Origin: a virus
Taxonomy: Duplodnaviria > Caudoviricetes
IMG/VR virus record: IMGVR_UViG_3300038679_000051
Span: 1-64,000 of that record
Length of the DNA stretch: 64,000 nucleotides
Direction: 5' to 3' (one strand)
The notes under the pieces are model-generated. The model did not search any database and had not been told where the DNA came from. It worked only from the letters and a program-made list of their open reading frames with translations. Both the position numbers and the translations under genes were made by a program. The first letter of the stretch is position 1; every line of letters begins with the position of its first letter. Positions 18,851-37,485 of this stretch are shown here, piece by piece.

Positions 18851-19471
18851 ATGAAAATAAAAACGAGTTTATTTTGTGCAACGTCCAGGAACGTACGGTG
18901 GCAGACGTGGCTTAGAGAACATGCTAAAGATCTTTATGACGACTTAATGAAAACGATCAAGGGAAACAGTTGTAAAGCCAACAAAGATAAAATGATGCAA
19001 ATATTGGTTGCGATTCGCGAACGAAATATGATTGAAAAATTTGAAAATTTGGTAAGGTCGGAATTCCCATATTTAGAGGATCGACCGCCACGATTGGTAA
19101 ATTCCATACCCAAACCGAATTGTTTCAAAAAGAAACTTACGCCGCCGGAAAAGATTATTGATTTAAATCCAGAAGAAGAAATGGCAGTCAATAAACATAA
19201 AGTGTTCAGATCATACCGACCGCATACGTTGACGTTTCCTTGTCGTTTAATCATCATTGGTAGAAACAAAGAAGAATTAAAAAAAAGGGCGTTGACGTTT
19301 ACTAGAAATAAAATTGGGGTTGATTGGATCATAATTGAAGATAGGGTGTATATAGAATATTTCTTTGAACAATATAGGAAGACGGTAGAAAAAATCAATG
19401 TGGAGGATCGTGAAATATTTCAATATCGTAGGGCGAACAATCTTCCAGATGGACATAGAGGTGATCTATGA
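18851..19471 (+). CDS. Hypothetical basic protein
   Basis: 206-aa ORF in operon. Confidence 0.65.
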   Translation: MKIKTSLFCATSRNVRWQTWLREHAKDLYDDLMKTIKGNSCKANKDKMMQILVAIRERNMIEKFENLVRSEFPYLEDRPPRLVNSIPKPNCFKKKLTPPEKIIDLNPEEEMAVNKHKVFRSYRPHTLTFPCRLIIIGRNKEELKKRALTFTRNKIGVDWIIIEDRVYIEYFFEQYRKTVEKINVEDREIFQYRRANNLPDGHRGDL

Positions 19472-20700
19472 CTAAGGGATTCGTTTATGGTTGCAATAGC
19501 GGCGATTTCATCAATTTAATCGTTTCAATAAATGCATTGCGTCATTATAGTCATGCTGAACCGATCTGCGTATATGATTTAGGATTGAGAAAAGATCAAT
19601 GTTCGTTTTTGACGAATGAATTGTCAGTGACCGTTTCAGAAATTCCGGCGACGATAAAATTGAACAAGAGATGGCAACGTGAATGTAAATCTTATATCAT
19701 GTCGAATAAACAATTCGACCACGTGATATGTTTAGAATGTAACGTAATGCCATTGACTAATTTTAATGATCTGTTTGAATGCGTCAAAGACGGATCGATC
19801 GTTGGGATTAAAGAAGGAGATGGTGCATTCTATGGTCCTGACCATCGCAGATATGGGTTCATGGAAGATTTCTTCAACAACAAATATGTGTCAATCGCCA
19901 TTATGGCGCTTGACGTCAATAAACATGAGGCAATGCTTAAAAAATGGTGTGATCAATGTCATGAAATCATCTTTTGTGATGATTCAATGCGGTGGCCTGA
20001 ATTTGAGCAAGACGTATTTAACGTAATTGCGTGTTCATCGGGTGAATATGAAAAGATAATGCCGCTGGAGTATGACATATGGTATGGTAAATGGTCATTT
20101 ATAAACAATCTACCTATAGTGATTGATCATAAGATAAACATGGCTACGCAGACTGGGGACATACAGCGTGCATTATATTGTGATTTTGGAAATCCAGGCA
20201 GAGTTGAAATGTTGAGTAGGAATAACGTTCTTGATCCTTTATTTGTATATCTCAAATTTCTATTCAACGGTCCGACGCCACCATCAGTTCCAAATCATCT
20301 AAATGTCTTCAGACATAAACATCAAAACCAAATAGACATGCTTGACCCTAAACCAGATGCTCGAAAAACACCAAGATTGAGTGACGACGTCGTATTAATT
20401 TTTAATGATTTAAATGTGCAATTTTATGATGGCACTGTAGTTTTAAAATTCGACGAACCATTGCAAGCATTCAATCTATTAAAGCAAATGAAATTTTCAG
20501 ATGCATATGTTTTTGGTCTCGATACGACTAAAAGAGACCAAAGTGACATTCATAGGTTGACTACCACAATTAATGATTTCGGTAGACGAAAGAGGAAAGT
20601 ACACATATGTCATGATAGTGAGATACCATTGGAATGGGTAAATTTCTTTGGTATCGTGAGCCATATATCTGTTTCGGAGGGATTAAAACAAACCACTTAA
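19468..20700 (+). CDS. Glycosyltransferase-like (GT-A, GT8-like) protein
   Basis: LIVSINALRHYS..VYDLGL; VICLECNV at the DxD position; EQDVFN. Confidence 0.7.
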   Translation: MTKGFVYGCNSGDFINLIVSINALRHYSHAEPICVYDLGLRKDQCSFLTNELSVTVSEIPATIKLNKRWQRECKSYIMSNKQFDHVICLECNVMPLTNFNDLFECVKDGSIVGIKEGDGAFYGPDHRRYGFMEDFFNNKYVSIAIMALDVNKHEAMLKKWCDQCHEIIFCDDSMRWPEFEQDVFNVIACSSGEYEKIMPLEYDIWYGKWSFINNLPIVIDHKINMATQTGDIQRALYCDFGNPGRVEMLSRNNVLDPLFVYLKFLFNGPTPPSVPNHLNVFRHKHQNQIDMLDPKPDARKTPRLSDDVVLIFNDLNVQFYDGTVVLKFDEPLQAFNLLKQMKFSDAYVFGLDTTKRDQSDIHRLTTTINDFGRRKRKVHICHDSEIPLEWVNFFGIVSHISVSEGLKQTT

Positions 20701-20753
20701 AATAGCCGTTTAAGAAAACATATTAATAGGATTGATTTTACCATCTTAGGAGA

Positions 20754-21851
20754 ATGCACATGCCACTGCCAGCACTTAAATCGTTAGCCAAAAAAGCCAA
20801 GAAATCGCCGTCTGATGCTGAACGATATTGGAAGGAGGCTGAATCCTGTGATAAATTGCCGGGGAGTCGCAAGTACAAATGTAAAATGGCCACTGTTAAG
20901 AAACGGTTAGGTCTTGAAAATTTCAACCCTGATCTTAAATATCATTTAATCAGTGGTTGGGAAAAGAACGATGGCATGATTGGTGAAGAATGGTATGGGG
21001 CAGTGGAACGAGATGATGCCAAATATTTGGTCGTTTTAGATGGTTTTGCTGCGCGAGGTGCATCGATCAATCATATGGGTACGACGACTATGTGTGAATG
21101 CGCATTGATGGAAGCTTATTTTGAGGACGTATTCGCATTTAATCAGACGAAATCAAATGGTGAGGAGGTAATCTTCACTGCTGAAGATGGTGAATTAGTC
21201 ATTAAAAAGGATGGCTCAGTGGAATGTCGGAAGGATGGCAAGACGAGAGTGGCTGATTTTAAAGTGCAATTCCCAGTCACTGGTACGCTGTCACAAGAGG
21301 ATGAATGGAAGATCATGGATTGGAAAGAATCTGAAGCAAAGACTGAGGAAGTTTCAACCGGTGGCATAGCCGACGTTATGGCTGGTCAACCGAAGATAGA
21401 GGCAGAATCATACAACGACAATTACAATCGTGGCATGGATCACAAACTGCGTACGCGAGAGGCCGACGGCAGCAACCCAGCACGGAATGAATGGGTACAC
21501 ACGGCGACCGGAAAAACCGGCATCTTCGAATCCAAAAACGACAAATACATGTCCATCAAAACCGACGTGGGTATGGTCGTAGATTTCATCGAAGAATTCC
21601 GAGAAGTTGGTCCAGAACCGGTATTGGAAGAATTGATGAATGAATTGAAGTTGAGAGATTTCGTCGTTGAAAGACGCGGCAATAAGTTGATCGTGTCAAA
21701 AGGCATGTTCAGAGCCGGTGAGTTGTGCGTCGTTGAGGACAAAGTAATCTATGAAATGAAAGGATTGATGCCAAAAATCTTTGTTTACGCACCGGAGAAA
21801 CTAATTACGATCATCGATTCGATATTTGGTAAAAACGATGATATACGCTAA
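20754..21851 (+). CDS. Hypothetical protein, possibly head-associated
   Basis: AGGAG RBS, 365 aa, basic N-terminal helix then acidic body. Confidence 0.7.
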   Translation: MHMPLPALKSLAKKAKKSPSDAERYWKEAESCDKLPGSRKYKCKMATVKKRLGLENFNPDLKYHLISGWEKNDGMIGEEWYGAVERDDAKYLVVLDGFAARGASINHMGTTTMCECALMEAYFEDVFAFNQTKSNGEEVIFTAEDGELVIKKDGSVECRKDGKTRVADFKVQFPVTGTLSQEDEWKIMDWKESEAKTEEVSTGGIADVMAGQPKIEAESYNDNYNRGMDHKLRTREADGSNPARNEWVHTATGKTGIFESKNDKYMSIKTDVGMVVDFIEEFREVGPEPVLEELMNELKLRDFVVERRGNKLIVSKGMFRAGELCVVEDKVIYEMKGLMPKIFVYAPEKLITIIDSIFGKNDDIR

Positions 21852-23022
21852 TGATGGTCGTTTTTATAATCTAGAATTTGCCTATGGCTCCGTTGATCCG
21901 TGTGGATATATTTATTATGAAACAAAAGTTTATAGAAAAATATCTGATCAACATAAAAAATCTATGATTGGAATCATAGAAATTATACAGAATTTAGATG
22001 GCATAATTAAAACAAAATTCGTCGCTGATTCTGTAGTCGAACATCCATATGTGCCATTTATTTCGCTTATTAGTGAATGGCCGCCAGAAGCAATTCGTGA
22101 TGCGGCCATATTGTTTATTGAGTTACAACACAAACTATCGAAACATAATCTAATGATTAAGGATGGTCATAGTTTTAATATACAATTTATGCATGGCAAA
22201 CCAATTTTTATTGATATTGGTTCAATAATTGGTGGTAATTATAAAAAGAATATTGTTTGGTGGGATCAATTTAAGGATTTTTTCTTAAGAACTCTAATAT
22301 CGTTTACAGAATTAGAATTTGAAAAAGAAGTGTGGACGTTAGATTATGATGAAATGTTGGATAAACTCAAATCAATTAGATTTAAATGTGCCGACCATGG
22401 GTGGTCACAATACCCACAACCAGACGAACTCGTGCGTCCTAAAGATGCCATTGTAAATCAGTTGTTACAAGAATTGCCTGGTCATACGTTAATTGACATA
22501 GGTAGTAATCGTGGATTATATTCAAAAATTGCTGCTAAAGCTGGTAAAATAGTTGTTGCGACTGATGTTGAGACAAATTCATGTAATGAATTATATGTGT
22601 CGGCTAAAACTAATAATTTAAACATTCTGACATTGAATCATAACATAAAATCGAATTATGGCGAGGGACACTGGGGAAAATATTATGCGACGCAATCATA
22701 TTTAATCCGATCATCTTTCAGGCGTCTTAAATGTGATTCTGGTATAGCATTAGCTATTGTGCATCATTTAGCTCGTGCTGGGTGGTCTCTAGAAGAAATA
22801 GCAAAGAGATTGAGTTCTTACATACGTCACAAATTGATTGTAGAATTTATACCAAAAGAGGACGAATATGTTGCTGGATGGCCATTTCCTAAAAATTATT
22901 CACTTGAAACGTTTGTCAATATATTAAAGTTATATTGGAAAACGATTAATGTCGTTGATAGTTCGCCATCACCGAGGGTTTTTGTGGTATTGAGTGATAA
23001 ATATAAAGATAAGGAAGAATAG
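21838..23022 (+). CDS. NoeA-like protein: kinase-like N-domain plus class I SAM methyltransferase
   Basis: HPYVPFIS..EW, KDGHSFNIQF..GKPIFID; LIDIGSNRG; ALAIVHHL. Confidence 0.8.
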   Translation: MIYANDGRFYNLEFAYGSVDPCGYIYYETKVYRKISDQHKKSMIGIIEIIQNLDGIIKTKFVADSVVEHPYVPFISLISEWPPEAIRDAAILFIELQHKLSKHNLMIKDGHSFNIQFMHGKPIFIDIGSIIGGNYKKNIVWWDQFKDFFLRTLISFTELEFEKEVWTLDYDEMLDKLKSIRFKCADHGWSQYPQPDELVRPKDAIVNQLLQELPGHTLIDIGSNRGLYSKIAAKAGKIVVATDVETNSCNELYVSAKTNNLNILTLNHNIKSNYGEGHWGKYYATQSYLIRSSFRRLKCDSGIALAIVHHLARAGWSLEEIAKRLSSYIRHKLIVEFIPKEDEYVAGWPFPKNYSLETFVNILKLYWKTINVVDSSPSPRVFVVLSDKYKDKEE

Positions 23023-23030
23023 GAGATGAC

Positions 23031-23648
23031 ATGCTTTCCATAATCATACCACATAAATCAACGCCGCAGAATGATGAATCTCTTGAATTGGCAAAGAAAT
23101 CAATAAAAGACAACACTGGGTGTGAATACGAACTCATGATCATCACTGATCCACCCGGTTGCACAGGTCGTGATCCATATGCGTTGTGGAATGAATACGT
23201 GCCACAGGCGAAATTTGAGAACATTGTATTCTCAAATTCCGACGTCATATTTGGACCAAATTGGGATTCATATTTTTTGAAATATGCTGGAGACAATAGA
23301 ATTCTGACACAATTTTTAGTCGAACCAGGAATCATTGGTGTATCCGCTCATAACATAAAACAAGACTGGGGCATTAGGCCATCTGACTTTCAATACAAAA
23401 CATTTTGTGATTGGGTTAAAACGGTTATGCCACAAGTCCCAGAAATAGAAGAGAAGATGGGGCATCATATGCCATCAATGTTGTTAAAATCATTTTTCAT
23501 TCGGATGGGTAAGTTTCCATGTGTATATCCATTCCCACATAGTAATGATCAAACATTTTTCGCTGCGTGCGTACACGGCGGCGCTAAGATTTATAAAGTT
23601 AGATCATTTGCGTATCATTTCCAGCAATTATCTAGGACGCCGAGGTAG
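23031..23648 (+). CDS. Glycosyltransferase family 2-like
   Basis: LSIIIPH; IVFSNSDVIF. Confidence 0.75.
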   Translation: MLSIIIPHKSTPQNDESLELAKKSIKDNTGCEYELMIITDPPGCTGRDPYALWNEYVPQAKFENIVFSNSDVIFGPNWDSYFLKYAGDNRILTQFLVEPGIIGVSAHNIKQDWGIRPSDFQYKTFCDWVKTVMPQVPEIEEKMGHHMPSMLLKSFFIRMGKFPCVYPFPHSNDQTFFAACVHGGAKIYKVRSFAYHFQQLSRTPR

Positions 23649-24483
23649 CCATAATCTCCAACAACCTACGTAAATCGATCATCGGTCTCCACCCAATGCT
23701 GCGCATTGTTCTTGGGTCAGAAATGAGGTAAGAGTATTCCGATTTAAACGATGATTTAGTTGTGATGTGATCTAAGTAATTGAGACCATAATATGAGAAA
23801 CAGAGTTCGGCCCAATCTTTTATTGTATATCCATCACCAGACCCAATTACTGCTTCGGTTATTTTGTCTTGTTCTACTAACGTTTTTATGCCATTTACTA
23901 CGTCACCGGCATATGTCCATTCTTTAAAAACATCCAGATCACCAATTTCTAAGACTTCTTTATGTCCTTCGGAGATTCGTCTAGCGGCATTCAATATTAT
24001 TTTACTAATACTCGTTGGTTGTCTATGTTGACTTTCATGATGAAACAGGTAACCAACATATGTTTTTATACCAATCGTTCGATAATATCTTGCCAAATAT
24101 GTTGAATAGATTCTGGCTGCCGAATATGAATTATTGGCTTCGAAGGGATTAGATTCATGTATTGGTTTATTTTCGCTTCTGAATTGTAAACCACTTCCGG
24201 TTATAAACACTTTGGTTTTCGGCGAATATGTTTTAATGGCTTCTAAAATATTGAGCGTTCCAGTAGTAATGGTAGTATGATTTTCGAAAGTTACTGAATG
24301 TTTGGTACTCGACCTAGCAGCAAAGTTATAAATAATGTCTGGTTTTATGTCATTAATGACATGTGATATTCTATTATAATCACTGACATCACAATCTTTG
24401 TGTGACAACCCAATGACGTTGTCATATAATTTTGACATTAATCGGCCATCTTGACCATTCGACCCGAAAATCATGATTCTCAT
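23632..24483 (-). CDS. gmd: GDP-mannose 4,6-dehydratase
   Basis: GSNGQDG, YNFAARS, YSAAR (YxxxK-like), LFHHES, IGDLDVFKEWTYAGD. Confidence 0.85.
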   Translation of the reverse strand: MRIMIFGSNGQDGRLMSKLYDNVIGLSHKDCDVSDYNRISHVINDIKPDIIYNFAARSSTKHSVTFENHTTITTGTLNILEAIKTYSPKTKVFITGSGLQFRSENKPIHESNPFEANNSYSAARIYSTYLARYYRTIGIKTYVGYLFHHESQHRQPTSISKIILNAARRISEGHKEVLEIGDLDVFKEWTYAGDVVNGIKTLVEQDKITEAVIGSGDGYTIKDWAELCFSYYGLNYLDHITTKSSFKSEYSYLISDPRTMRSIGWRPMIDLRRLLEIMATSAS

Positions 24484-25691
24484 AAAATTTTAAACTTCGG
24501 GAGTGGTTGGACGAAATTACAATTTCGTTTTTTGAACAAATTGCGCCAACCATACGAAAGCAATTGTTTCTCCCTCTTTAGAAATTCATCCATGAAATAC
24601 CACGGAAATACCAGCACGAAATCTGGTTTGTCATTGCGCATCTCTTCTTCTGGACAAATTCGGATGTTTGTACCAGGTGTGTAAAGACCGTATTTTTTAG
24701 GGTTACGCTCAGCAATTGCGATTATATCATTTTGTTTAAGTTGACAATATTGTAGGATAATTTGTCCTTTTGTTGATGCACCATATCCATAAATTTTCTT
24801 TCCTCTTGTACGTTCAAAGAAATCTAATAGATCTTCTCTTGATTTTTTTACTAATCGTGCAAATTCATTATACGGTTCATCATGATCATAATTATGCATT
24901 TCTTTTTCTTTTATGTTAGATACGTTTGCGGAAATGGTTCTCTTTCCAGATTTTGATACAAATAATCTGAATGATCCACCATTCATATCATTAAATTTAA
25001 CGTCAAACACTTCTAAGCCACTATCTTCAAGCACTTTGTTGAAAGTTTCTAAGCAATAGAATGTGACATGTTCATGACATATGGTATCATACGAGACTTT
25101 GTCCAACATAGATGGCATATAACTGAGTTCTAAGACCCAGATACCATCGTCTAATAAGCAATCTTTGATGTCTTGTACGAATTTCTTTGGGTTATCTAGA
25201 TCATAAAACATAGCTATTGAGGTGATTATCTTAAATTTGTCATTGACATTTTCTGCTGTAAAATAATCATTGATATGCTTGTCAATTCCAGAAGGTGTAA
25301 TGTTTGACGGGTCAATACCAACTGTGAAGATATTTTCCCCATAATTTGATAAGAGAGTACAATCATTGCAACCAATATCTAACACTTTATCGCCGGTATT
25401 GAGTTCGATGTGTTCCAAAACATCATCTACGATCCCCTTTAAATGGACCCGCATCGTGTTGTTGATTCCAGATTTATACCAATATGATTTATACATTAAA
25501 TCTCTATTAACCGAATGTGATAATTGAACTAAATTACAATCATTACATCTCATTAATGTCAGTGGGGCAGTCATGGTTGGTGCATCGTCTCCATGATGAA
25601 AAGCATTCGCCACATATTGTTGTCCTAAATCCAAAATTGGTATGAAATTAGCATTAGAACAAATTCTACATTTGGTCGCAGCACAATGCAT
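24480..25691 (-). CDS. NDP-hexose C-methyltransferase (Zn-binding N-terminus)
   Basis: CRIC..LDLGQQ..C..C.LVQL; LDIGCNDCT; ICHEHVTFY; YGASTKG. Confidence 0.9.
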   Translation of the reverse strand: MHCAATKCRICSNANFIPILDLGQQYVANAFHHGDDAPTMTAPLTLMRCNDCNLVQLSHSVNRDLMYKSYWYKSGINNTMRVHLKGIVDDVLEHIELNTGDKVLDIGCNDCTLLSNYGENIFTVGIDPSNITPSGIDKHINDYFTAENVNDKFKIITSIAMFYDLDNPKKFVQDIKDCLLDDGIWVLELSYMPSMLDKVSYDTICHEHVTFYCLETFNKVLEDSGLEVFDVKFNDMNGGSFRLFVSKSGKRTISANVSNIKEKEMHNYDHDEPYNEFARLVKKSREDLLDFFERTRGKKIYGYGASTKGQIILQYCQLKQNDIIAIAERNPKKYGLYTPGTNIRICPEEEMRNDKPDFVLVFPWYFMDEFLKREKQLLSYGWRNLFKKRNCNFVQPLPKFKIL

Positions 25692-25749
25692 TTGGATTCT
25701 CCTTTATTTTATATATTTACGGAGCATACATAAAATAAAGGAGAATTAA

Positions 25750-26394
25750 ATGAATCAATTTCTACGCAATCAACAGGAAATAACGGACAGTACTAAATTT
25801 TTGATTAATGGCAAATTTCTGCGGAATGAAGTATGTGAACCTAAGAATTGGGATTTGACGTTGATTCTTCCTCGCCTAGGACATGGCAACATTTTGGATG
25901 TGGGGTGCCAGGGGTCGGTTGTTTTAAATAATTGTCTCAAAATGGGTTTGCACGGTGATAAGGTCGGCATAGACTTAATTCAGATACCGGCACCAAATGG
26001 AATCAGGCATTTAGTTGGTGATATCACAAACAATGATTTACCTTCCGAATATTTCAATTATATTACTTGCTTGTCTGTGATTGAACATGGGGTCGACATA
26101 AATAAATTCTTCGTGGAGAGTTCAAGGTTGTTAAAAAGTGGTGGTCATTTATTTATGTCATTTGATTATTGGAATCCAAAATTAGACACTGATGGAGTGC
26201 TTGTTTTTGGGTTGCCGTGGCATATCTTCTCTAGAAGTGAGGTTGAGGAAATGATACAAGTGGGAAGCAGTGTTGATCTAAATCTTAATGGCCCAATTGA
26301 TTGGACGATTCAAGACGGTACAATTAAGCCGGGTTATTGGTCACCATGTAATCATAATTATACGTTTGGAATGCTTGAATTCATTAAAACCTAG
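25750..26394 (+). CDS. Class I SAM methyltransferase
   Basis: ILDVGCQGS; CLSVIEHG; LKSGG. Confidence 0.85.
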   Translation: MNQFLRNQQEITDSTKFLINGKFLRNEVCEPKNWDLTLILPRLGHGNILDVGCQGSVVLNNCLKMGLHGDKVGIDLIQIPAPNGIRHLVGDITNNDLPSEYFNYITCLSVIEHGVDINKFFVESSRLLKSGGHLFMSFDYWNPKLDTDGVLVFGLPWHIFSRSEVEEMIQVGSSVDLNLNGPIDWTIQDGTIKPGYWSPCNHNYTFGMLEFIKT

Positions 26395-27322
26395 CAACTA
26401 TGGCATTTAAACTTCCCACCAAATTCTGTGGCGACCATTCTTGTTTAAATGGAACTAATGGTAAAATTGAGTTTTCTATGATGGTAGGCAAACTAGTTTC
26501 TTCAATTAAAATCGATGGTCTTGCATTGTAAATGTGTCTGAACATATGTGTTCTATTAATGGCGATTGGTCGATTTACGGCTAATGCATAGTCTATGGTG
26601 CTCGATATTCCACGATGCATGTTGTCATAAAGAAAAGCATTCATGGTGTTTTTTGCTAGAAAATCAAGAAGTTCCGCCGTAGACAACAAATCATGCGAAG
26701 CAATTATTTCTATCCCAGGTTTTTTAATTATATTGCGCATTTCTTGCACTCTCGCTCGTGCTTCTGCACCTGATGGATCGAAATATTTGCTAAAAGCAAT
26801 ATGAACTCTGATGATCGCTTTATCGAATTGATCTTGAACTAACGAAGCAAGACGAGAAAAACCCTTATTTGAAAATCCAAATCCGAAACTGCCAATAGTT
26901 GGTATCCATGGCAATGGGTAATTATTGGCATATTGCGTATATATTGGTCTACCAATTTTAGAAATGTGTTGATTAATGATCAAAGTTGGGTCGCTGCAGA
27001 TCCAATGATGAAAAGGATGAGCGGACCGTAAGTTGTTTGCAGCATCTTGGGTTATCTCGTGATATATTCCAATACATGGTCGTCGTAAACTTTGTATGAA
27101 TGGCCAACTTACATATGGTTGAGTATGTGGATGATAATTAAAGATTATTGTTTTTGGATTTGTGTTATTAACAGCAGTTTGCACTTCTTGTGCCGTGGCA
27201 CAATAAGCAATATGAAAATCATTTTCAGTTTTTGCCGAGTTTAAAATATTATAAAGATTAATACCAAATTGATAAACGCCACAGGCACTTTCTGTTGCGT
27301 TGATAATCAATGCATTACTCAT
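26384..27322 (-). CDS. Glycosyltransferase-like (GT-B-like) protein
   Basis: CGVYQFG; IGSFGFGFSNKGF; GISSTIDYALAVNRPIAI; glyco-island context. Confidence 0.6.
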   Translation of the reverse strand: MSNALIINATESACGVYQFGINLYNILNSAKTENDFHIAYCATAQEVQTAVNNTNPKTIIFNYHPHTQPYVSWPFIQSLRRPCIGIYHEITQDAANNLRSAHPFHHWICSDPTLIINQHISKIGRPIYTQYANNYPLPWIPTIGSFGFGFSNKGFSRLASLVQDQFDKAIIRVHIAFSKYFDPSGAEARARVQEMRNIIKKPGIEIIASHDLLSTAELLDFLAKNTMNAFLYDNMHRGISSTIDYALAVNRPIAINRTHMFRHIYNARPSILIEETSLPTIIENSILPLVPFKQEWSPQNLVGSLNAIVARF

Positions 27323-27323
27323 A

Positions 27324-29487: not shown

Positions 29488-29532
29488 TTTCCTAGAAATA
29501 CATAAATAGGAACGGGGAGGAGATTAAGACAC

Positions 29533-30360
29533 ATGCGATTAATTTTTGTTCTCACCAGAACGTCATACGATTCATATGCTGATTATAGGACGTTAGTTGA
29601 GAAAGCTTGGGGAGACGTGTGTTATGTAGATGAAATAAAAATGTCTGAGCCTGTGGTTTACGTGGTCTCGCCTATGAATGGTGAATTTCGACCACATATT
29701 GACAATCACCGTAACGAAGACAAGAAATGTAAAATCCTGTGGTGGAATCTTGAGCGACCGCCGCGAGACGAGAATCATAATGCTCATAAACGTGACATAA
29801 ATGATCTTTTAAATAGATATGTCGACAAAATGGTCGTCTCTGATCTGTGGTATAAACATACATACTACAAGGAATTCGGTGATAAAATAATCTTTTGTCC
29901 AATAGGGGTTGATAAGGTTCTTTGTGATGACCCATGGAGAGACCATAAATCATATAATTTCGCGCATATGAGTTACGTCTGGGGTAGACGTGATATTTTA
30001 AATCGGCTACCTAGCATGTTTGGAAATTGTTGGGGTGATGCTAGAAGAAACGGATTACTGAATACCAAATTCATGGTGAACGTCCACCAAGATCAATATG
30101 GCATCATTGAACCATTACGATTTGCTCTCGCCGTATCTCATGGTTTGCCAATAATAACTGAAAATTGTCATAATCCATTCCCATATGAACCCGACAAGGA
30201 CGTCGTAATGACGGATTATAATCAAATAATAGATGTGGCCAATAGATGTGCTTTGGGAAACTATGATCATTACATACAAATGGCTCAGAGGACATATGAC
30301 AAAATGTCCAATCAATATGGTTTTGTAAAGTGTGTGAAAGAATTGTCCAACTTATTTTAA
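29533..30360 (+). CDS. Glycosyltransferase-like protein
   Basis: KFMVNVHQ..EPLRFALAVSHGLPIITE. Confidence 0.65.
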   Translation: MRLIFVLTRTSYDSYADYRTLVEKAWGDVCYVDEIKMSEPVVYVVSPMNGEFRPHIDNHRNEDKKCKILWWNLERPPRDENHNAHKRDINDLLNRYVDKMVVSDLWYKHTYYKEFGDKIIFCPIGVDKVLCDDPWRDHKSYNFAHMSYVWGRRDILNRLPSMFGNCWGDARRNGLLNTKFMVNVHQDQYGIIEPLRFALAVSHGLPIITENCHNPFPYEPDKDVVMTDYNQIIDVANRCALGNYDHYIQMAQRTYDKMSNQYGFVKCVKELSNLF

Positions 30361-31074
30361 GCGTTCACCAATTGGCATTTGCATTCTTGTTTTGAACGTT
30401 TTGGCGTCTATTGATGACATGTTATTTCCAAAGACGTCATGTTCATCTTGTGTACGGAACCCATGTGAATAATGTCTATGATTGAACGTTAAGTGATATG
30501 CCATTTTAATTAAATTAAGTTCATGTAGATTATAATATAGCTCTACGTCCGAATATTGCCAGTGATATGCATGATGGTAAATTATCTTATTTAGTTTCAA
30601 TAAACAATCGTAGGTCATTATTGGTATTGTCATAACACCAGTGCTTTTAAACCCATCATTAACCACAACTGAGCCATTCCAATCATCAAAAATGCCGATT
30701 AATGATTTATCCCAATCTAATGGTGAAAAGAAGTCATCTGAAACTACGATGATGATTGGATTGTCTTCGCATTTTATTGATTGTGTCAAATTATAGGTAG
30801 CCCAGGTTGGGCCACGTTTATTACCTACAACCATCACATCCATAAAATCCGACAATTCATTGCGCTGAGCAACATCATTAACGGCTATTTTAACGTCGAT
30901 TTTGTTCTCTTTAGACGACGTATCAATCCAATGTTGATACGTCGTCTTCATAATTTGCGGCCTTACGGTTGGCCATAACAATAATATGCGACGTTTAGGC
31001 ATCTTTCTACCATCCATTATCATTCCAAAAGTATATACTTTCGGAAAAGGAAAGTATATGATAATGCCTTGCAT
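30352..31074 (-). CDS. Glycosyltransferase family 2-like (true start may be downstream)
   Basis: LLWPTVRP; IVVSDDF; YSDVEL..FNHRHY. Confidence 0.7.
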   Translation of the reverse strand: MQGIIIYFPFPKVYTFGMIMDGRKMPKRRILLLWPTVRPQIMKTTYQHWIDTSSKENKIDVKIAVNDVAQRNELSDFMDVMVVGNKRGPTWATYNLTQSIKCEDNPIIIVVSDDFFSPLDWDKSLIGIFDDWNGSVVVNDGFKSTGVMTIPIMTYDCLLKLNKIIYHHAYHWQYSDVELYYNLHELNLIKMAYHLTFNHRHYSHGFRTQDEHDVFGNNMSSIDAKTFKTRMQMPIGERLK

Positions 31075-31138
31075 TATGGATCTGATTATCTTGGTTGGTC
31101 AATCAAAATGAAATCACATCCTTATTATAATCTAGACA

Positions 31139-31876
31139 TCATTTAATCTTTTTGAATTCGGTTACGACGAACTTACCGAAGCCTTGTGACCGACTGGCAC
31201 CTAAGCCATCTCCTTCGGCCAATTTCAGCATCCGCTTAATGTGCTCTTCTTTGAAGGCACCGTTGATTGGCCACTTGATGGTAAAGGTGGCTTGTGCTTT
31301 TTCGACATATTCATGTCTACCGATGGCCGACCGTCGTCCGGATGCATCGCTGATGTGCTTTATGCGATCGACGTTGCCGTCTGCTTTCTTAATTGGTTTA
31401 CCGTCTTTGAGCAACCTGATGCGCAGTGGGTCGATGTGTAGGCCGTGCTGCAACGTTTGGCGACCACCAGCATGTCCAGCATTGTCGTCATTGCTCTTGC
31501 GTTTGCCGGGCGGCAATTGCGTTATACCAAGCGTGACGGCACATTCGCGCAACAATGCCTTGACGTTGGCATGCCATATGGTCAAACATTGTTCATTGTC
31601 GCGTTCAAACACGCAGCAATTCGATTCCTTAGCCGATACCAATTCATTATCGAGCAATTTTCCATCTCGCACTCGTTCGCGAAATTCCTCCTTTTCCTTA
31701 TCGGACATGTGTTTGGCTTCCATGTAAAATTCAAGCATGTCACCCATCGCAGGGCAACCACCAAGCACTTTGTCTAAGAAACATATGCTCACTTGATATT
31801 CTTCAAAAAGTTTGACGTCATCCAACACTGACAACACTGATTTCGTTTTTGTTTCAGTCTTTGTTTTGATTTGCAT
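31139..31876 (-). CDS. Solitary Cas7/RAMP-like protein (Csf2/Vipr-like)
   Basis: YQVSICFLDKVLGGCP; FERD...IWHANVKALLRE; C-terminal G-loop GLGASRSQGFGKFVV; AAGGAG RBS. Confidence 0.8.
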   Translation of the reverse strand: MQIKTKTETKTKSVLSVLDDVKLFEEYQVSICFLDKVLGGCPAMGDMLEFYMEAKHMSDKEKEEFRERVRDGKLLDNELVSAKESNCCVFERDNEQCLTIWHANVKALLRECAVTLGITQLPPGKRKSNDDNAGHAGGRQTLQHGLHIDPLRIRLLKDGKPIKKADGNVDRIKHISDASGRRSAIGRHEYVEKAQATFTIKWPINGAFKEEHIKRMLKLAEGDGLGASRSQGFGKFVVTEFKKIK

Positions 31877-31891
31877 TTTTGTCTCCTTTAA

Positions 31892-32091
31892 GGGTTGCCT
31901 TGGAAAGGCCAGGTCTAGATGGGCATGTCACTTGGGCGGAGCAGGAGCGACTTGGTGTGGCCCGTCTCAAATGTCTCAGCATGTCACACTCCGGGTTAAA
32001 TGGCATGTCGCAAAGGCTCGGCTTGAATTGGCTAGTCTCAAATGTCACAAAGGCCCGGAATGGCTTGTCACGGACTGTACCGACTTGTCAC
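31892..32091. repeat. Pentamer-periodic array G(G/T/A)N-NN with recurring GTCNC-AAA(T) punctuation; candidate guide RNA locus
   Basis: 36 pentamers in 7 runs, 33 start with G (+ strand); GTC[A/T/G]C occurs 9 times; lies directly 5' of the RAMP gene RBS. Confidence 0.75.
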
Positions 32092-32155
32092 ATGGACGTC
32101 TATTCTTTTTATGCTCGTTCGTCAATTTTCTAGGATTCTTGACCAAATATATTTT

Positions 32156-33325
32156 ATGATAGGCACTACTAAATATATTGAATTGGTTGCCGTTAGACAG
32201 CATGGCAGCGTCACCATAAGCAATGGTAACGTCCGTGAAATTTATACACCTACGTTTGGCATGGTGATTAGGGACGTCGTCTGGAAAGCGAATTTGAATC
32301 CATCTGATTTTGATGTTTGGGTGCCTGATTATGAGCACATGAATCTTAAACAAGCTGGTGTGATGGATCCGGTCACCAATGGTGACGTAATCGTATTGAC
32401 GCACATTGCATTTGGGATGGATTATAAAAAAGCCACTGAGGCATATGCATTGCTCAAATCAATCATGCCCAGTAGATATGCCGTCTTTAGGGAATCCGAC
32501 CCTGGTTCTGGCTCTGACATACCGTCCAAGGTCCCGCCACACGCCATCATCAGCCTTACCGAACGTTTTGGCGATGCGCCGTTGGACGTTTTGTTCGATG
32601 CGTCTGGGTCATATGATGAAATCGTTTCAATAACTGAATATGAGTGGAATTTTGGTGACGGCAACAAATCATCTGAACCGGTGGTTGACCATCAATATCA
32701 GAAAAATGGTGCTTTCACGGTCACGCTGACCGTGAAAAATGATTTGGGCATGATCGGCAGTACGACCAGACAGATATTGGTCGGTCCAGCCAACGTTCCG
32801 ACGGCAGCAGATCAATCGGTTGCCACGGTGGTCAACAGGAGCGTCAACATAACTTTAGTGGCGAATGATCCACAGGGACGTAGTTTGACGTATTCGGTTG
32901 TTAGGGTGCCATTGCATGGTACGCTTACTGGCATGGCACCTAATTTGACATATACGCCAAATGCCACATACGAAGGTGATGACGACTTCATTTTCAAGGC
33001 CAATAATGGGGCAGTAGACACTAACTCTGCGACCGTCAGCATCTCCATCAAATCTTCTGAGACGCCAGAAATTATCTCAGGACCTACTGTGACGCCGGAT
33101 TCAGTCAGCATGGATGAACCGGTATATTTTGGAATATCTGCCATTTCCACCAGTCCGATTGCCTTAAGATATATGTGGAATTTCGGCGATGGCAACATAT
33201 CTACTGTACAGAATCCAATGCATACATATGCATCGTCGGGGACGTTTATAGCGACCGTGACCATTAGCGTGGGCAACAGCACGACGGTGAAAACGGTTGC
33301 GGCGATTAGTGTCTTAGTAGGCTAA
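32156..33325 (+). CDS. PKD / Ig-like (PKD-Big_9-PKD) decoration protein
   Basis: FDASGSYD..YEWNFGDG..HQY..GAFTVTLTV; LTYTPNATYEGDDDFIFKANNG; YMWNFGDG..HTY. Confidence 0.88.
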   Translation: MIGTTKYIELVAVRQHGSVTISNGNVREIYTPTFGMVIRDVVWKANLNPSDFDVWVPDYEHMNLKQAGVMDPVTNGDVIVLTHIAFGMDYKKATEAYALLKSIMPSRYAVFRESDPGSGSDIPSKVPPHAIISLTERFGDAPLDVLFDASGSYDEIVSITEYEWNFGDGNKSSEPVVDHQYQKNGAFTVTLTVKNDLGMIGSTTRQILVGPANVPTAADQSVATVVNRSVNITLVANDPQGRSLTYSVVRVPLHGTLTGMAPNLTYTPNATYEGDDDFIFKANNGAVDTNSATVSISIKSSETPEIISGPTVTPDSVSMDEPVYFGISAISTSPIALRYMWNFGDGNISTVQNPMHTYASSGTFIATVTISVGNSTTVKTVAAISVLVG

Positions 33326-33338
33326 GAAGTAAATAACT

Positions 33339-33881
33339 TTGATGATTACTTTCGTCATACCGACCATAGGTCGATCAACTTTAATGCGATCTATTGATTC
33401 GCTACGTGCACAGACTGATCAAAATTGGAAAGCCATAATAGCCTTTGATACAATAGAACCGACTTTGTTGTCTGATGAAAAATTGAAGATCATTAAGGTG
33501 CGGCCGACCGGTCAATGGCGTGCTGGAGCAGTTCGGAATGCTGCTATCGATCTTGTAGAATCACCATGGGTAGGTCTATTGGATGATGACGATACCATAT
33601 GCCCGAATTATGTTGAGACGCATATGAAAATGATAAATGATGATTCTGCAGCTGACATTTTCTTATATAAGATGCTCAACCAAGATGGCAGAACGTTGCC
33701 TGACGTGCCAGATCTGCGTTGTAACCATGTTGGGATATCGTTCGCCTTCCGCAAACGGGTGTTTGAGAAGGTTAAGTTTAGGCAGATGAAATGTGAAGAT
33801 TTGGATTTTCTGCGTACTGCGAGAGTGAGGGGCTTTCGCATAAAGTTCGCCGACGCCGTCCTCTACAGGGTGAAACAATGA
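33339..33881 (+). CDS. Glycosyltransferase family 2
   Basis: ITFVIPTIGR; GAVRNAAI; GLLDDDD. Confidence 0.9.
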   Translation: MMITFVIPTIGRSTLMRSIDSLRAQTDQNWKAIIAFDTIEPTLLSDEKLKIIKVRPTGQWRAGAVRNAAIDLVESPWVGLLDDDDTICPNYVETHMKMINDDSAADIFLYKMLNQDGRTLPDVPDLRCNHVGISFAFRKRVFEKVKFRQMKCEDLDFLRTARVRGFRIKFADAVLYRVKQ

Positions 33882-34573
33882 TCATAATTACGGTAAGTCA
33901 TGATGCTAAGAATTTCGTTGAATTGTGCATTAAAGCGGTGCATCATTACACGAAGGGTGAACATCTACATCTAGTGATCGACAATGGTTCGCAGTTGGAT
34001 GCATTGAAATTGCTGCGCGGGTTTGCCAATAAAAAATGGATACAATTAATTGAGCGAAAATTATCTAAGAATGCTTCCGGACATGCATTGTCATTAGATT
34101 GGATCTTGAAAAATTATTATAATTTTGGTGATAAGTTCGTATGTTTAATGGATTCTGACGCTCATCCATCATCACATGGTTGGGACGTTGAATTATTGAA
34201 GCGGATGGAAGGGCATTCTGCTATTGGCTGCGTGCATTTCCGTGACGATAAATTGTTGCATCCATCGACGATGATTTTCAAACATGCAGAATATAAACGA
34301 ATTGGATGTCCAAGCTTTAGAATCATAAAGAATCAGGACGGTTTTATGGATACTGGCATGATTGTTTGTAAGGAGATGATTAAGCAAGGATTGAAATTAT
34401 TGCCGATGAGCAGAGAGGAAATGGCACAATTCGTACGCCATAGATGGTGCGCTACGCGCCGTGAATTAGTGACTGGTGACAAACTCGACGATCAACCTAC
34501 GGCCAAATACGACGAAGAAACGATGGCGTTTTTGGCACACCCATCGGCGCGGGAGGCATTGCAACATGCATAA
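33878..34573 (+). CDS. Glycosyltransferase family 2
   Basis: LVIDNGS; GHALSLD; CLMDSDA. Confidence 0.85.
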   Translation: MIIITVSHDAKNFVELCIKAVHHYTKGEHLHLVIDNGSQLDALKLLRGFANKKWIQLIERKLSKNASGHALSLDWILKNYYNFGDKFVCLMDSDAHPSSHGWDVELLKRMEGHSAIGCVHFRDDKLLHPSTMIFKHAEYKRIGCPSFRIIKNQDGFMDTGMIVCKEMIKQGLKLLPMSREEMAQFVRHRWCATRRELVTGDKLDDQPTAKYDEETMAFLAHPSAREALQHA

Positions 34574-35276
34574 ATTTCTGTTTTTGTCATTATTATTGTC
34601 ATTCATACCCGGTTGTCTCAATCCGACGCAACGCATGGATCCGCAACCAATTGTGATTACGCACAAGGAACCGGACGTTAAGGTCGCAACTAGGGACGAT
34701 CTAACGACGAGCACCAATTCATTGCAGACGCAAATTCAGGGCATTGGTGCAACCATAGGTCAATTGGCTAATAAAATGTCATTAGTCGAAGGCGATTTAT
34801 TGAAGATACAAAATTCGTTGGAGATTAAAGCCAGTGCAACGGCGATTGCTGAATTGCAGACCGACGTTCGTGCATCAATTAAAGCGATTACTGACGTTAA
34901 ATTGCAATTCGACGCTGAAATCAATGCCATTACCGACATTAAAGCACAATTGAATGCCCAAGCCAATTTATTTGCACAACTTGAGGCTAAATTGCAGGGA
35001 CAAGTTGGCTTATCCAATAAAATAGATGAATTGAAGAATGAAGTCAGTTCTGGTCGTGATAGCGTGGTCACGACCATTCAATTTACTGACAACGTAATGA
35101 AGACGATCATCTACGGCAATTTATTTTATGCCGGAATAATCATAGTGATCGTGGTATCCATATGCGTCGTCATAATTGTGTTAATGTCCAATTCTAGAAA
35201 GCGTGCTGAAGATCGATACAAGATGGAACGTGATCATCGGATGACGTTTAACGTTCAAAGAGGGGGAACGCAATGA
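34566..35276 (+). CDS. Lipoprotein with coiled coil and C-terminal TM helix (unimolecular-spanin-like architecture)
   Basis: MHKFLFLSLLLSFIPG-C lipobox; heptad region; GIIIVIVVSICVVIIVLM TM; basic tail; GGAGG RBS. Confidence 0.7.
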   Translation: MHKFLFLSLLLSFIPGCLNPTQRMDPQPIVITHKEPDVKVATRDDLTTSTNSLQTQIQGIGATIGQLANKMSLVEGDLLKIQNSLEIKASATAIAELQTDVRASIKAITDVKLQFDAEINAITDIKAQLNAQANLFAQLEAKLQGQVGLSNKIDELKNEVSSGRDSVVTTIQFTDNVMKTIIYGNLFYAGIIIVIVVSICVVIIVLMSNSRKRAEDRYKMERDHRMTFNVQRGGTQ

Positions 35277-35692
35277 AAAAAGTGAAAATGAAGAAAATCA
35301 AATTTGACGTTAAAGCTAGACCAGAATATCGAGACGTGCCAAAATACGCGAAACTTGGGGAGGAGCCAATTGAGGGGCAAATAGTTGACGCATGGTACAT
35401 TAACAAAGACGATTTGAAACCGTTCGATCCTGGTGCATATTTTCAAACGTCTGGTGAGGCAGTGGCAAAAGGCATAAAGATGTTGTCGGATGCTCATAAA
35501 TTCGTTGGACGATTGCAATCATTGGTATCGAAATTAAAGAAGACGAAAGCTAACAATAAATTTTTAGAAGTCGGACATGATGATTTCCAGATCGTATGTA
35601 AAAACAAGAATCCCAGAGTATTCAAGAAAAAAGAAGATAGGAAGATTAAGAAGAAACCCGAAGAGGACGATTGGGGAACGTCATGGCATTAA
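35273..35692 (+). CDS. Hypothetical basic protein
   Basis: ATGA overlap; GGGGG RBS. Confidence 0.65.
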   Translation: MKKVKMKKIKFDVKARPEYRDVPKYAKLGEEPIEGQIVDAWYINKDDLKPFDPGAYFQTSGEAVAKGIKMLSDAHKFVGRLQSLVSKLKKTKANNKFLEVGHDDFQIVCKNKNPRVFKKKEDRKIKKKPEEDDWGTSWH

Positions 35693-36273
35693 TATCCATC
35701 ATTACGCCAACTCATAAACGAAATCCAATTATCCTAGAAAGATGTTTTATATCAGTAGAAAGACAGACATATGATCAATGGGAACATTTGGTCGTTGCCG
35801 ATGGCGGTGATCTCAACGCTAAGAATATGATCATCGTGGGAAACAATGACAAGAGATCATATCATGAAATTGAACGTAGGGGCGGTTATGGTGCAGCGGT
35901 GCGTCAAGCAGCCTTGGATAAAGCCAAAGGCAAATATTTAGTTTTTCTAGATGATGATAACATAATCTTTCCAACGTTTTTAGAAAAGATGATCAGTGCC
36001 CTGGAGAGTGCAAAAGACGACGAAAAATTCGCGATTTGTCAGATGCTGCATTTTGGGCCGGTACAACCATTTCTTGGACCGCCACCAATCGTATTGGAAG
36101 GAATTCCGAAGATGTATCACATTGATACGCTTCAAATAATGATTGACAAAGAGGCATTTATGTCGGTTGGATGGCAAGGTAACGATTATTTTTCAGATGG
36201 TAGGACATATGAAATGTTGGGCAGCAAATTCAAATACGTGAAAGTTCCGGAAGTGTTGTGTGTACATCTATGA
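35683..36273 (+). CDS. Glycosyltransferase family 2
   Basis: ISIITPTH; VVADG; VFLDDDN. Confidence 0.9.
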   Translation: MALISIITPTHKRNPIILERCFISVERQTYDQWEHLVVADGGDLNAKNMIIVGNNDKRSYHEIERRGGYGAAVRQAALDKAKGKYLVFLDDDNIIFPTFLEKMISALESAKDDEKFAICQMLHFGPVQPFLGPPPIVLEGIPKMYHIDTLQIMIDKEAFMSVGWQGNDYFSDGRTYEMLGSKFKYVKVPEVLCVHL

Positions 36274-36282
36274 GGATCAAAC

Positions 36283-37485
36283 ATGGCTAATAATTTGGTC
36301 ACGGTCTTGTTAATTGGTATGAATGACGCCAAACCACATACGACTGAACGCAATGGTACGTTGGGTTTTGAATGTCATTATTTGGACAATGATGAAAATC
36401 TCGAACGAGCGTTAGTTGAACATCATCCACAAGTAATCGTCACTTTCGGTGACGTCCGATCATATAAGAGATTATGGAATGCACCAATTGAGATTAGAAA
36501 ACGTTGGCTCAATTTTGATAAACCAATCGATCCGCTTAAATTAGGTTCATCTATCTTAAGTTGTTATGCGATCAATGCAACCGGTAGAATTTTTGGTGAA
36601 TTGCCATTGATGTCCATCATTACGCCGACGTATAGAACTGGGCGTAAGATATTCCGACCGTTCAATTCATTGATGCAACAAACTTATAAGAACTGGGAAT
36701 GGGTCATCTTTGATGATTCTATGGATGATGATAAGACATATAATGAGATGTGCCATTTGGCTAAGCAAGATCATCGCATTTCGGTTTATAAAGCACACAG
36801 ACATTGCGGCGTGATTGGTGAATTGAAACGACGTGCCGCGATGTTGTCAAAAGGTGATTACATAGTTGAATTGGATCATGATGATGAACTTACACATGAA
36901 TGCCTGGATTATGTCATTGAGGCATTCAAACAATTTAATGACGCCGGTTTTGCTTATGGAGATTGTGCAGAGATATATGACGATGGACGCAATAGGACAT
37001 ATGGCCGATGGGCGTTCGATTATGGCAGTTATCGCAAAGAAATTTATGATGGTAGGGAATTGTTTGTGACTAATTATCCAAACATCAATTCTAAAACCAT
37101 CCGACACATTGTCGGCGTACCAAATCACGTCCGCGCATGGCGTAAAGATGATTATTTCGTAATTGGTGGTCACGGTAGCGACGTTCACGTCGCTGACGAT
37201 TATGAATTGTTGTTACGGACGTTTTTATATACGCCAATGATCAAAATACCAAAACTTACGTACATACAATATCATAACAGAAATGGTGGCGGCAATACGC
37301 AGATGTCTAGAAATGCAGAGATACAACGGTTGGTAAGACAATTCTCACATCATTATAATAAAGAGATCCATGATCGATTCATGGAATTGGGCGTCGATGA
37401 TTTCATTTGGGCGGAGAATGGACTAAATTGGAACGTTCCAAATAAGGACCCAGAATCAATCGCCAATTATGTGGCAGTTTTTTGA
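36283..37485 (+). CDS. Glycosyltransferase family 2 with N-terminal extension
   Basis: MSIITPTY; VIFDDS; VELDHDD; ADDYELLLR. Confidence 0.92.
   Translation: MANNLVTVLLIGMNDAKPHTTERNGTLGFECHYLDNDENLERALVEHHPQVIVTFGDVRSYKRLWNAPIEIRKRWLNFDKPIDPLKLGSSILSCYAINATGRIFGELPLMSIITPTYRTGRKIFRPFNSLMQQTYKNWEWVIFDDSMDDDKTYNEMCHLAKQDHRISVYKAHRHCGVIGELKRRAAMLSKGDYIVELDHDDELTHECLDYVIEAFKQFNDAGFAYGDCAEIYDDGRNRTYGRWAFDYGSYRKEIYDGRELFVTNYPNINSKTIRHIVGVPNHVRAWRKDDYFVIGGHGSDVHVADDYELLLRTFLYTPMIKIPKLTYIQYHNRNGGGNTQMSRNAEIQRLVRQFSHHYNKEIHDRFMELGVDDFIWAENGLNWNVPNKDPESIANYVAVF

Follow-up and report, generated by a model that had tools for sequence, protein, structure and literature searches.

A jumbo-phage gene island that most likely encodes the synthesis of a methylated glycan with a 6-deoxy-3-C-methyl-hexose

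Pelagimyophages and cyanomyophages possess host-recognition clusters that are rich in glycosyltransferases (GTs), lie beside fibre genes and have a mean size of 34-45 kb (PMC7029224), and jumbo phages carry multi-family GT clusters labelled as 'capsular polysaccharide modification' (PMC7824862). Virion O-glycosylation has been described for the mycobacteriophages Che8, Corndog and Myrna, and, as far as the account of Freeman et al. 2023 given in PMC12619734 goes, mycobacteriophages are the only phages in which virion glycosylation is proven; one to a few GTs lie there directly beside capsid or tail-tube genes, and the glycans are shown on virions. A GDP-mannose route to virenose, the 6-deoxy-3-C-methyl sugar of Coxiella burnetii lipopolysaccharide (LPS), has been proposed in silico (PMC3539893, PMC3204966). 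In this study we analysed the first 64,000 nucleotides (the window) of the IMG/VR virus record IMGVR_UViG_3300038679_000051, in which about 22 open reading frames (ORFs) are packed into an island at positions 19468-37485 that encodes GTs, methyltransferases and a sugar-modifying short-chain dehydrogenase (SDR). A previous sequence-only reading of this stretch had proposed that the island is phage-borne and makes a complex methylated glycan.

The island is most likely an export-less, mosaic gene set of a T4-like jumbo phage, by which a methylated glycan with a 6-deoxy-3-C-methyl-hexose is made in the cytoplasm. All the ORFs listed in the sequence-only reading were found in place, and the proposed gene set was borne out by ten supported GTs, four methyltransferases and a deoxy-sugar branch. 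Its statement that so large a cluster is unusual was exaggerated, in view of the 34-45-kb clusters and the jumbo-phage clusters cited above, and the kind of system has already been described. Like those clusters, the island belongs to a large aquatic T4-like phage, combines GTs of several families with enzymes modifying nucleoside diphosphate (NDP)-sugars and with O-methyltransferases, lies beside fibre-like genes, varies as a mosaic between relatives and has a function that is predicted only. It differs from them in adding a 3-C-methyl deoxy-sugar branch and an unclassified GT-B family and in lying outside a recognised structural module, its core being located beside replication genes in a relative. 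The mycobacteriophage systems, as portrayed in PMC12619734, share with it soluble phage GTs, sometimes accompanied by methyltransferases, that would act cytoplasmically on structural proteins without export machinery, whereas the GTs of the present island number about ten, lie far from the capsid gene and are only predicted to make a virion glycan. The new points are the C-branched sugar branch, an SDR with a YxxxR motif, the unclassified GT-B family and a frameshifted FkbM gene.

The source record is 320,399 bp long, has direct terminal repeats and was judged to be 100% complete. The complete 320-kb genome is designated as G000, and the coordinates of the window are those of its first 64 kb. 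A profile search of the complete genome revealed a T4 gp23-type major capsid gene at 213,288-214,532 (E 2e-79), and a phage-type helicase is encoded in the window (ORF 54884-58744). Taken together, the direct terminal repeats, the gp23-type capsid and the phage helicase identify the record as a T4-like jumbo phage and not a host locus. The complete genome gave no match to the terminase model PF03237, and a search with a capsid model of the nucleocytoplasmic large DNA viruses (NCLDV) was uninformative, the model having matched 0 control genomes. The island and its left flank had no megablast match among 50,697 phage records. The same DNA was found in several groundwater and coal metagenome assemblies: the whole 19.6 kb is contained in a single contig of 44.6 kb from another run (perhaps the source run itself), and the island is also present in pieces at at least 99% in a further sample. 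Two metatranscriptome libraries contained contigs at at least 99% over 18 of 30 and 17 of 30 island bins, where DNA carry-over is possible and the uncovered bins are uninformative. The GC content is 0.35-0.38 at 22-30 kb versus 0.41-0.45 in the surroundings, and the coding strand changes six times across the island.

The enzyme-coding ORFs of the island, named hereafter by their first coordinate, are as follows.

19468-20700, plus strand: orphan 410-aa protein with a GT8-like lead only (language-model features)
21826-23022, plus strand: probable class I or FkbM-like methyltransferase (C-terminal domain; weak profile matches)
23031-23648, plus strand: divergent GT2-type (GT-A) GT, left end of the conserved core (homologues)
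23632-24483, minus strand: GMD-family SDR, 283 aa, putative 4-ketoreductase (PF16363, 1e-44)
24480-25691, minus strand: NDP-hexose 3-C-methyltransferase of the TylC3/TcaB9 type (Pfam Methyltransf_13, _23 and _14)
25750-26394, plus strand: S-adenosylmethionine (SAM) methyltransferase (Methyltransf_11), probable O-methyltransferase (PF08241, 2e-8)
26384-27322, minus strand: compact GT-B enzyme of a family without a Pfam model (AlphaFold (AF2) model and fold search)
27324-27970, minus strand: FkbM-family methyltransferase in two ORFs, with first coordinates 27674 and 27324 (PF05050 on the C-terminal half)
27971-28729, minus strand: GT-A fold GT with a DAD motif (AF2 model and fold search)
28726-29487, minus strand: GT9-like (heptosyltransferase-like) GT-B enzyme of a largely viral family (ESM Atlas structure)
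29533-30360, plus strand: Glyco_trans_1_2-related (CgeB-like) protein, right end of the conserved core (homologues)
30352-31074, minus strand: probable GT-A GT (phrog_14945 'glycosyltransferase', 9e-6)
33339-33881, plus strand: GT2 GT, 180 aa, with a DDDD motif (PF00535, 6e-11)
33878-34573, plus strand: GT2 GT, 231 aa (PF00535, 4e-5, just over the cut-off; phrog_2456, 4e-3)
35671-36273, plus strand: GT2 GT, 200 aa (PF00535, 1e-15)
36283-37485, plus strand: GT2 GT with an uncharacterized 100-aa N-terminal domain, right end of the island (PF00535, 6e-16)

Ten of the eleven GT-like ORFs are supported, in keeping with the previous count of about ten; the exception is 19468. The supported enzymes represent at least four fold or family types, namely GT2-type (GT-A), GT4-like, GT9-like and Glyco_trans_1_2-like (GT-B), and DxD-type motifs are visible in the GT-A members when the sequences are read directly. 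Family searches gave direct matches for four ORFs with Pfam PF00535 and for 30352 with PHROG, but the remaining GT calls have no direct family match, and the number of ten was reached after homologue and structure tests. Homologues carried the assignment of 23031 (184 homologues; PF00535 matched by 23 of the 52 aligned ones and not directly by 23031 itself) and 29533 (105 homologues; PF13524 Glyco_trans_1_2 in 8 of 43, best E 2e-7). Their counterparts in the related phage described below are 79 and 72% identical, respectively. In an hhalign comparison with the 23031 family, the SDD motif of 30352 falls on the DxD region, but the match is weak (E 0.0025, probability 12%). Among the GT2 enzymes at the right end, 35671 resembles one domain of a multi-GT protein of 1202 aa on a viral contig (L023; 41% identity). 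The last enzyme, 36283, has TuaG/WcaA-like NCBIfam matches under the cut-off and a full-length homologue, 43% identical, in the 735-kb phage LR756501, which shares nothing else of the island.

Structure models carried the other assignments. More than 341 homologues of 26384 were collected, none of which has a GT Pfam match and a few of which bear methyltransferase domains (PF13489/PF08241). The AF2 model of 26384 has a pLDDT of 95.8, and all its top PDB matches are GT4-type GT-B enzymes (GlgM, HepE, WbnH and BshA; E 1e-9, TMq 0.6-0.7); viral GT1/GT4 proteins also match the model. For 28726, the Atlas model (pTM 0.81) matches viral clusters at TM 0.67-0.83, several of them with the GT9 family model PF01075. 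The 27971 protein has weak PF00535/PF13641 matches at its DxD region, and its AF2 model (pLDDT 82) shows a GT-A fold whose longest matches are the peptide-glycosylating GT-A enzymes ThuS (7msk; Z 13.1) and SunS (7msp; Z 12.2) over about 180 residues (Foldseek, VIA); other GT-A folds and nucleotidyltransferase folds come within 1 Z of these scores. The family profile of 27971 likewise has SunS as its best, though weak, PDB match (E 0.037). Compared with SunS and ThuS, however, 27971 is 13-16% identical and is devoid of the C-terminal peptide-binding domain, and no glycocin precursor gene accompanies it. Relatives of 27971 occur in pelagiphage HTVC008M and 13 viral contigs; the label 'glycosyltransferase' at the HTVC008M match was dropped because it belongs to the neighbouring gene, the homologue itself being annotated as hypothetical.

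Several searches were unproductive. Searches of PDB sequences by phmmer with 23031, 26384 and 29533, and of the PDB with the family profiles A1 and A6, returned chance matches only; hhalign gave no convincing match of 27971, 30352 or 19468 to the 23031 family, or of the 29533 family to the 26384 family; and tblastn of 30352 against cultured phages found nothing. The orphan 19468 retrieved only itself among 5.8 billion proteins and had no Pfam, PHROG or NCBIfam match. Its lead to GT8 and nucleotide-diphospho-sugar transferase clusters is weak (ESM Atlas feature score 0.92 with few, about 118, shared features). The structure matches of its truncated-form Atlas model were discarded as the model was poor (pLDDT 0.54), and nothing was retrieved when viral contigs were scanned with 19468 or the helicase as single proteins.

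The four methyltransferases counted previously are all present, as 24480, 25750, the split FkbM gene (27674/27324) and, more weakly, 21826. The first of these has full-length PDB matches to 4rv9 (5e-45) and 3ndi (6e-42) and shares with these TylC3/TcaB9 enzymes all three domains (zinc-binding N-terminus, SAM and C-terminal). The solved enzymes act on dTDP-sugars in antibiotic pathways, whereas the context of 24480 points to a GDP-sugar in a glycan pathway. The counterpart of 25750 in the related phage is 64% identical. All the profile matches of 21826 are under the cut-off (phrog_8156 methyltransferase, 2e-4; FtsJ, 0.016; NCBIfam fkbM_fam, 9e-4; MftM, 2e-3). Direct reading of the DNA showed that the FkbM gene is interrupted by a one-base frameshift in a T run at 27716-27725 (minus strand) with an in-frame A_AAT_TTT heptamer. 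The downstream half is in the -1 frame, so that a -1 shift would restore the full protein, and an intact 216-aa orthologue on the related contig (L009) aligns over both halves. No indel at the break was reported in four public runs, and an RNA-library contig crosses the site without a gap, which shows that the sampled populations do carry the break. The gene may be dead, or the frameshift may act as a phase switch or be bypassed by ribosomal slippage. In the related contig the situation is reversed, with the FkbM gene intact and the island SDR frameshifted.

The sequence-only reading had assigned 23632 as 'gmd', the gene for GDP-mannose 4,6-dehydratase (GMD), and this assignment did not hold. 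The protein scores 123 bits against a 415-bit cut-off for the gmd equivalog. Alignment to GMD structures and to the phage GMD showed that it keeps the catalytic Ser and Tyr but has Leu at the position of the dehydratase Glu and Arg in place of the catalytic Lys (YxxxR for YxxxK), a pattern shared by the intact bacterial orthologue (L011) and the frameshifted orthologue of the related phage (L009). It is 46-48% identical to SDRs of bacterial cassettes. A genuine GMD is encoded outside the window, at 237,964-238,878 of G000 (PF16363, 455 bits, full length, with SSE and YxxxK intact), and no sugar nucleotidyltransferase (NTP-transferase) gene was found in the complete genome. Because an SDR lacking the Glu and bearing YxxxR coexists with a GMD elsewhere and with no nucleotidyltransferase in the genome, the island SDR is probably a 4-ketoreductase and not a dehydratase. 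SDRs of this YxxxR subfamily without the dehydratase Glu were found at 23632-24483 (minus strand), L011:11784-12656 and L015:11199-12032, always beside a TylC3-type C-methyltransferase and a 26384-type GT-B enzyme, in phages and bacteria alike.

The enzyme families of the branch are established, and from them we infer in which order the steps take place, which nucleotide carries the sugar and what is produced. Host GDP-mannose would be converted to GDP-4-keto-6-deoxymannose by the phage GMD encoded in trans at 238 kb, methylated at C3 by the TylC3-type enzyme 24480 and reduced at C4 by the Glu-less YxxxR enzyme 23632 to GDP-6-deoxy-3-C-methyl-hexose. This sugar would be transferred by the co-travelling GT-B enzyme 26384, and the remaining GTs and O-methyltransferases would extend and decorate a heteroglycan in the cytoplasm. 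GDP is the presumed carrier, in place of dTDP, because a GMD is present in the genome, ManC and GMD occur together in one bacterial locus, and no dTDP-glucose pathway gene was seen. The pathway follows the logic proposed for Coxiella LPS virenose (PMC3539893) and differs from it in being split, with GMD at 238 kb and the rest in the island, and in having a reductase candidate with YxxxR and without the Glu.

Comparison with other genomes revealed that the island is a mosaic. The 58.7-kb contig JAUXTJ010000077.1 (GCA_030679435.1; L009/L012/L013), binned in a Nanopelagicaceae metagenome-assembled genome (MAG), is part of the genome of a related jumbo phage: the helicase, SbcCD, dCTP deaminase, topoisomerase (type I) and GMD that it encodes are 45-75% identical to the products of G000 genes at 136-161 kb and 238 kb, and it also encodes a PurZ-like adenylosuccinate synthase. 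The MAG bin was not accepted as evidence of the host. The conserved core, 23031-30360 (7.3 kb), is syntenic in this contig at 57-80% identity, whereas the 40 kb of it that were examined contained neither 19468-23022 nor 30352-37485. The extra genes of the contig encode sulfotransferases, a second FkbM protein, a GMD and an fcl-like protein. Island content thus varies between related phages, with only 23031-30360 shared; conservation in relatives, raised earlier as a check, holds for the core in one clear relative and does not extend to the linkage with fibre genes. A trio of C-methyltransferase, YxxxR SDR and 26384-type GT-B enzyme, encoded next to one another, is also present in three bacterial polysaccharide loci (L011, L014 and L015; 38-48% identity), which hold Wzx, or Wzm/Wzt with ManC, GMD and Bac_transf. 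The presence of both ManC and GMD besides the cassette in L014 points to a GDP-mannose origin of the cassette sugar.

The following non-enzymatic ORFs and regions flank the island or are enclosed by it.

13407-15116, plus strand: collagen-like, fibre-like protein, 569 aa, left flank, possible acceptor (G-X-Y run at residues 175-192)
15120-18842, plus strand: Kelch beta-propeller protein, 1240 aa, with a short collagen stretch, left flank, possible acceptor (Kelch_1/4/6, E 1e-18 to 1e-21)
18851-19471, plus strand: 206-aa protein whose end overlaps the start of 19468 (no Pfam or PHROG match)
20754-21851, plus strand: acidic 365-aa protein (no match in any library, no paralogue in the genome)
31139-31876, minus strand: 245-aa protein with a weakly RAMP/Cas6-like C-terminus (all matches under the cut-off)
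31877-32155, no strand: divergent intergenic region with about seven TGTCAC-type repeats between the RAMP-like and PKD genes (read directly)
32156-33325, plus strand: PKD/Big_9 immunoglobulin (Ig)-like-domain protein, 389 aa, candidate surface or decoration protein and acceptor (PKD_4 2e-32, PKD 5e-22, Big_9 6e-13)
34566-35276, plus strand: envelope-type protein with a lipobox-like signal, a long coiled coil and a C-terminal membrane helix (no family match)
35273-35692, plus strand: basic 139-aa protein (no family match)

The acceptor is the least certain part of the explanation. Our best explanation, which we hold tentatively and with slightly less than even confidence, is that the glycan is placed on surface proteins made by the phage. 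The candidates are the adjoining collagen/Kelch fibre-like proteins, the enclosed PKD/Ig-like protein and other collagen- and Ser-rich fibres, and the virions would carry a coat of glycan like those of mycobacteriophages and giant viruses. No island enzyme has membrane helices, all being soluble, and the island contains no multi-pass membrane ORF. In the complete genome, no match was found to the priming transferase models PF02397 and PF00953, which matched control genomes, or to the ABC2 exporter model PF01061; the sole match to the flippase model PF01943 (Wzx) was sub-threshold, with three internal stops, at 57500-57754 on the opposite strand within the span of the helicase ORF. The phage therefore cannot run a lipid-carrier pathway alone. 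A ThyA-family hydroxymethylase (PF00303) was likewise unmatched in the complete genome, in a search confined to that family. At least ten further ORFs with collagen-type repeats are present in the genome, and a GT2 match lies directly upstream of the collagen gene pair at 261.9 kb. The plus-strand run 11806-23648 places the collagen and Kelch genes tight against the first GT- and methyltransferase-like genes. Glycosylation of phage surface proteins is favoured because of these soluble enzymes, the lack of export and ThyA genes, the collagen- and Ser-rich ORFs, the GT2 gene upstream of collagen genes and the strand packing. The likeness of 27971 to SunS and ThuS may be a weak hint at a protein acceptor.

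Several points weigh against this explanation. What marks the collagen and Kelch proteins, as candidate acceptors, as fibres is confined to Kelch repeats and short runs of collagen triplets. About 180 kb separate the island from the gp23-type capsid gene, so that the GTs are not adjacent to capsid or tail-tube genes. In the related contig, the core adjoins SbcCD, helicase and dCTP-deaminase (replication) genes and not fibre genes. The bacterial homologues of the cassette presumably act on lipid-linked glycans, judging by the O-polysaccharide loci in which they lie, and similar islands have been read as host-surface change (PMC7029224, PMC7824862). Among the enzymes themselves, the activity of the SDR is uncertain given the Arg at the position of the catalytic Lys, and one methyltransferase is broken by the FkbM frameshift.

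The most serious of the alternatives, which we consider doubtful, is that the phage enzymes remodel the host surface: they would act on lipid-linked intermediates of host O-polysaccharide or cell-wall glycan by way of the host's own priming enzyme and exporter, and would thereby prevent superinfection or keep progeny from adsorbing to dying cells. The clusters of pelagimyophages, cyanomyophages and jumbo cyanophages have been interpreted in this way (PMC7029224, PMC7824862), and the interpretation agrees with the residence of the trio, at 38-48% identity, in bacterial loci with Wzx, Wzm/Wzt, ManC, GMD and Bac_transf, with the GT9-like enzyme of the island and with the envelope-type lipobox/coiled-coil/membrane protein encoded among the GT2 genes. 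However, priming transferase, flippase, polymerase and exporter are all lacking from the complete phage genome, about ten GTs are many for the mere editing of an existing polymer, and several of the families, such as that of 28726, are almost purely viral in the Atlas. If the island were itself a host O-antigen or exopolysaccharide locus, as the sequence-only reading had raised against its own proposal, or a chimeric assembly, the sub-cassette homologues in bacterial genomes and the binning of the related contig in a bacterial MAG would be readily understood. We give this next to no credence, since the complete 320-kb genome has direct terminal repeats, a gp23 capsid gene and no export machinery, the 19.6 kb recur whole in a 44.6-kb contig of another run (possibly the source) and in pieces at at least 99% in a further sample, and the MAG contig itself carries phage core genes 45-75% identical to those of G000.

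Two other products were considered. It is very unlikely that the enzymes make a soluble or secreted glycoconjugate outside the virion and the host envelope polymers, such as a free oligosaccharide, a glycolipid or a glycosylated small molecule or peptide. The solubility of all the island enzymes, the resemblance of 27971 to glycocin S-glycosyltransferases and the occurrence of TylC3-type enzymes typically in antibiotic sugar pathways would fit such a product, and a secondary-metabolite reading has been suggested for a second cyanophage cluster in the jumbo-phage survey (PMC7824862); yet the island has no aglycone, peptide-precursor or transporter gene, and the bacterial cassettes reside in polysaccharide loci and not in natural-product clusters. 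Still less probable is hypermodification of DNA, in which some of the GTs would glycosylate modified bases of the phage genome. There are phage GT-B and GT-A enzymes that glycosylate DNA (Pyle 2024, bioRxiv 10.1101/2023.12.21.572611), and T4 alpha-glucosyltransferase is among the lower fold matches of 26384, where it ranks as a generic GT-B. However, GT4 sugar and polysaccharide enzymes rank as the best fold matches of 26384, no ThyA-family hydroxymethylase was found in the complete genome by PF00303 (TET-type routes not being covered), and DNA glycans take one to three GTs, not ten together with a C-methyl deoxy-sugar branch.

The sequence-only reading had also placed the island next to collagen/Kelch fibre genes and around a Thr/Ser-rich PKD protein. 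The adjacency and the repeats of the former are confirmed, with the restriction on their fibre homology given above. The collagen-like 13407 protein has a weak collagen Pfam match and tail-fibre PHROG matches over its triplets only, and the Kelch protein matches phrog_16216 (1e-34), whose function is unknown. Searches by tblastn with 13407 and with the 5747 protein against cultured phages gave no match. The ORFs 5747-8209 and 15120-18842 share an N-terminal GLMS..(D/E)(K/F).K-type motif detected by regular expression, and 13407-15116 has a looser GLMSAHDKGLID form that the expression does not match; the three, none of which has a match in cultured phages, may be paralogous fibre bases. The GLMS..DK-type motif is reminiscent of tail fibres, a likeness that was not used as evidence. 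Further collagen-repeat ORFs lie at 162105-168193, 242903-244988, 261883-266821 and 301205-308410 of G000; they include a 1452-aa protein with a 97% Ser/Thr tract (nearly pure Ser) and a pair, 162105/166460, with 39% identity to each other. As for the PKD protein, its PKD and Big_9 domains and a Ser+Thr content of 19% (9.8% Thr and 9.5% Ser) were confirmed, but it has no mucin-like tract, and its gene most likely starts at 32156, not 32042. It has no paralogue in the genome.

Among the other neighbours, 34566 is the only ORF of the island with a membrane-helix-like segment. Its topology would fit a one-piece spanin or another envelope-spanning protein and, if it is a spanin, may imply a diderm host, in conflict with the binning of the related contig as actinobacterial. 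The RAMP/Cas6/Csm4 matches of 31139 (PF03787, 0.04; Cas6_C, 0.05; TIGR01877, 0.002) come from its glycine-rich end motif, and the protein has no paralogue and no link to sugar chemistry. The TGTCAC-type repeats beside its gene are probably a regulator-binding array. Upstream of the island, a papain-family cysteine protease, a 661-aa sigma-70-like protein and an adenosine-deaminase-family gene occur at 2509-5415 and 12418-13356, and this left region is thus no classical structural module. Just downstream, tRNA-Met and a phage tmRNA, whose tag peptide ends in AFAA, are encoded at 38777-38851 and 39160-39541 (minus strand).

Multi-GT islands are among the commonest unexplained cargo of large aquatic phages, and to our knowledge nobody has shown their targets. 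The present island offers three handles on this matter: a defined three-enzyme branch for a rare C-methyl deoxy-sugar (GMD in trans, TylC3-type methyltransferase and YxxxR SDR); a large GT-B family that is invisible to Pfam and travels with the C-methyl branch in phages and bacterial O-polysaccharide loci; and a complete genome that, being devoid of lipid-carrier and export genes, narrows the choice of acceptors. In the fullest form of the favoured explanation, which as a whole is unlikely, a methylated heteroglycan with a C-branched 6-deoxy-hexose would coat the collagen, Kelch and Ig-like proteins, one of its methylations being switched by the FkbM frameshift through -1 slippage or phase variation. 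If true, this would be a tunable virion glycan coat in a jumbo phage.

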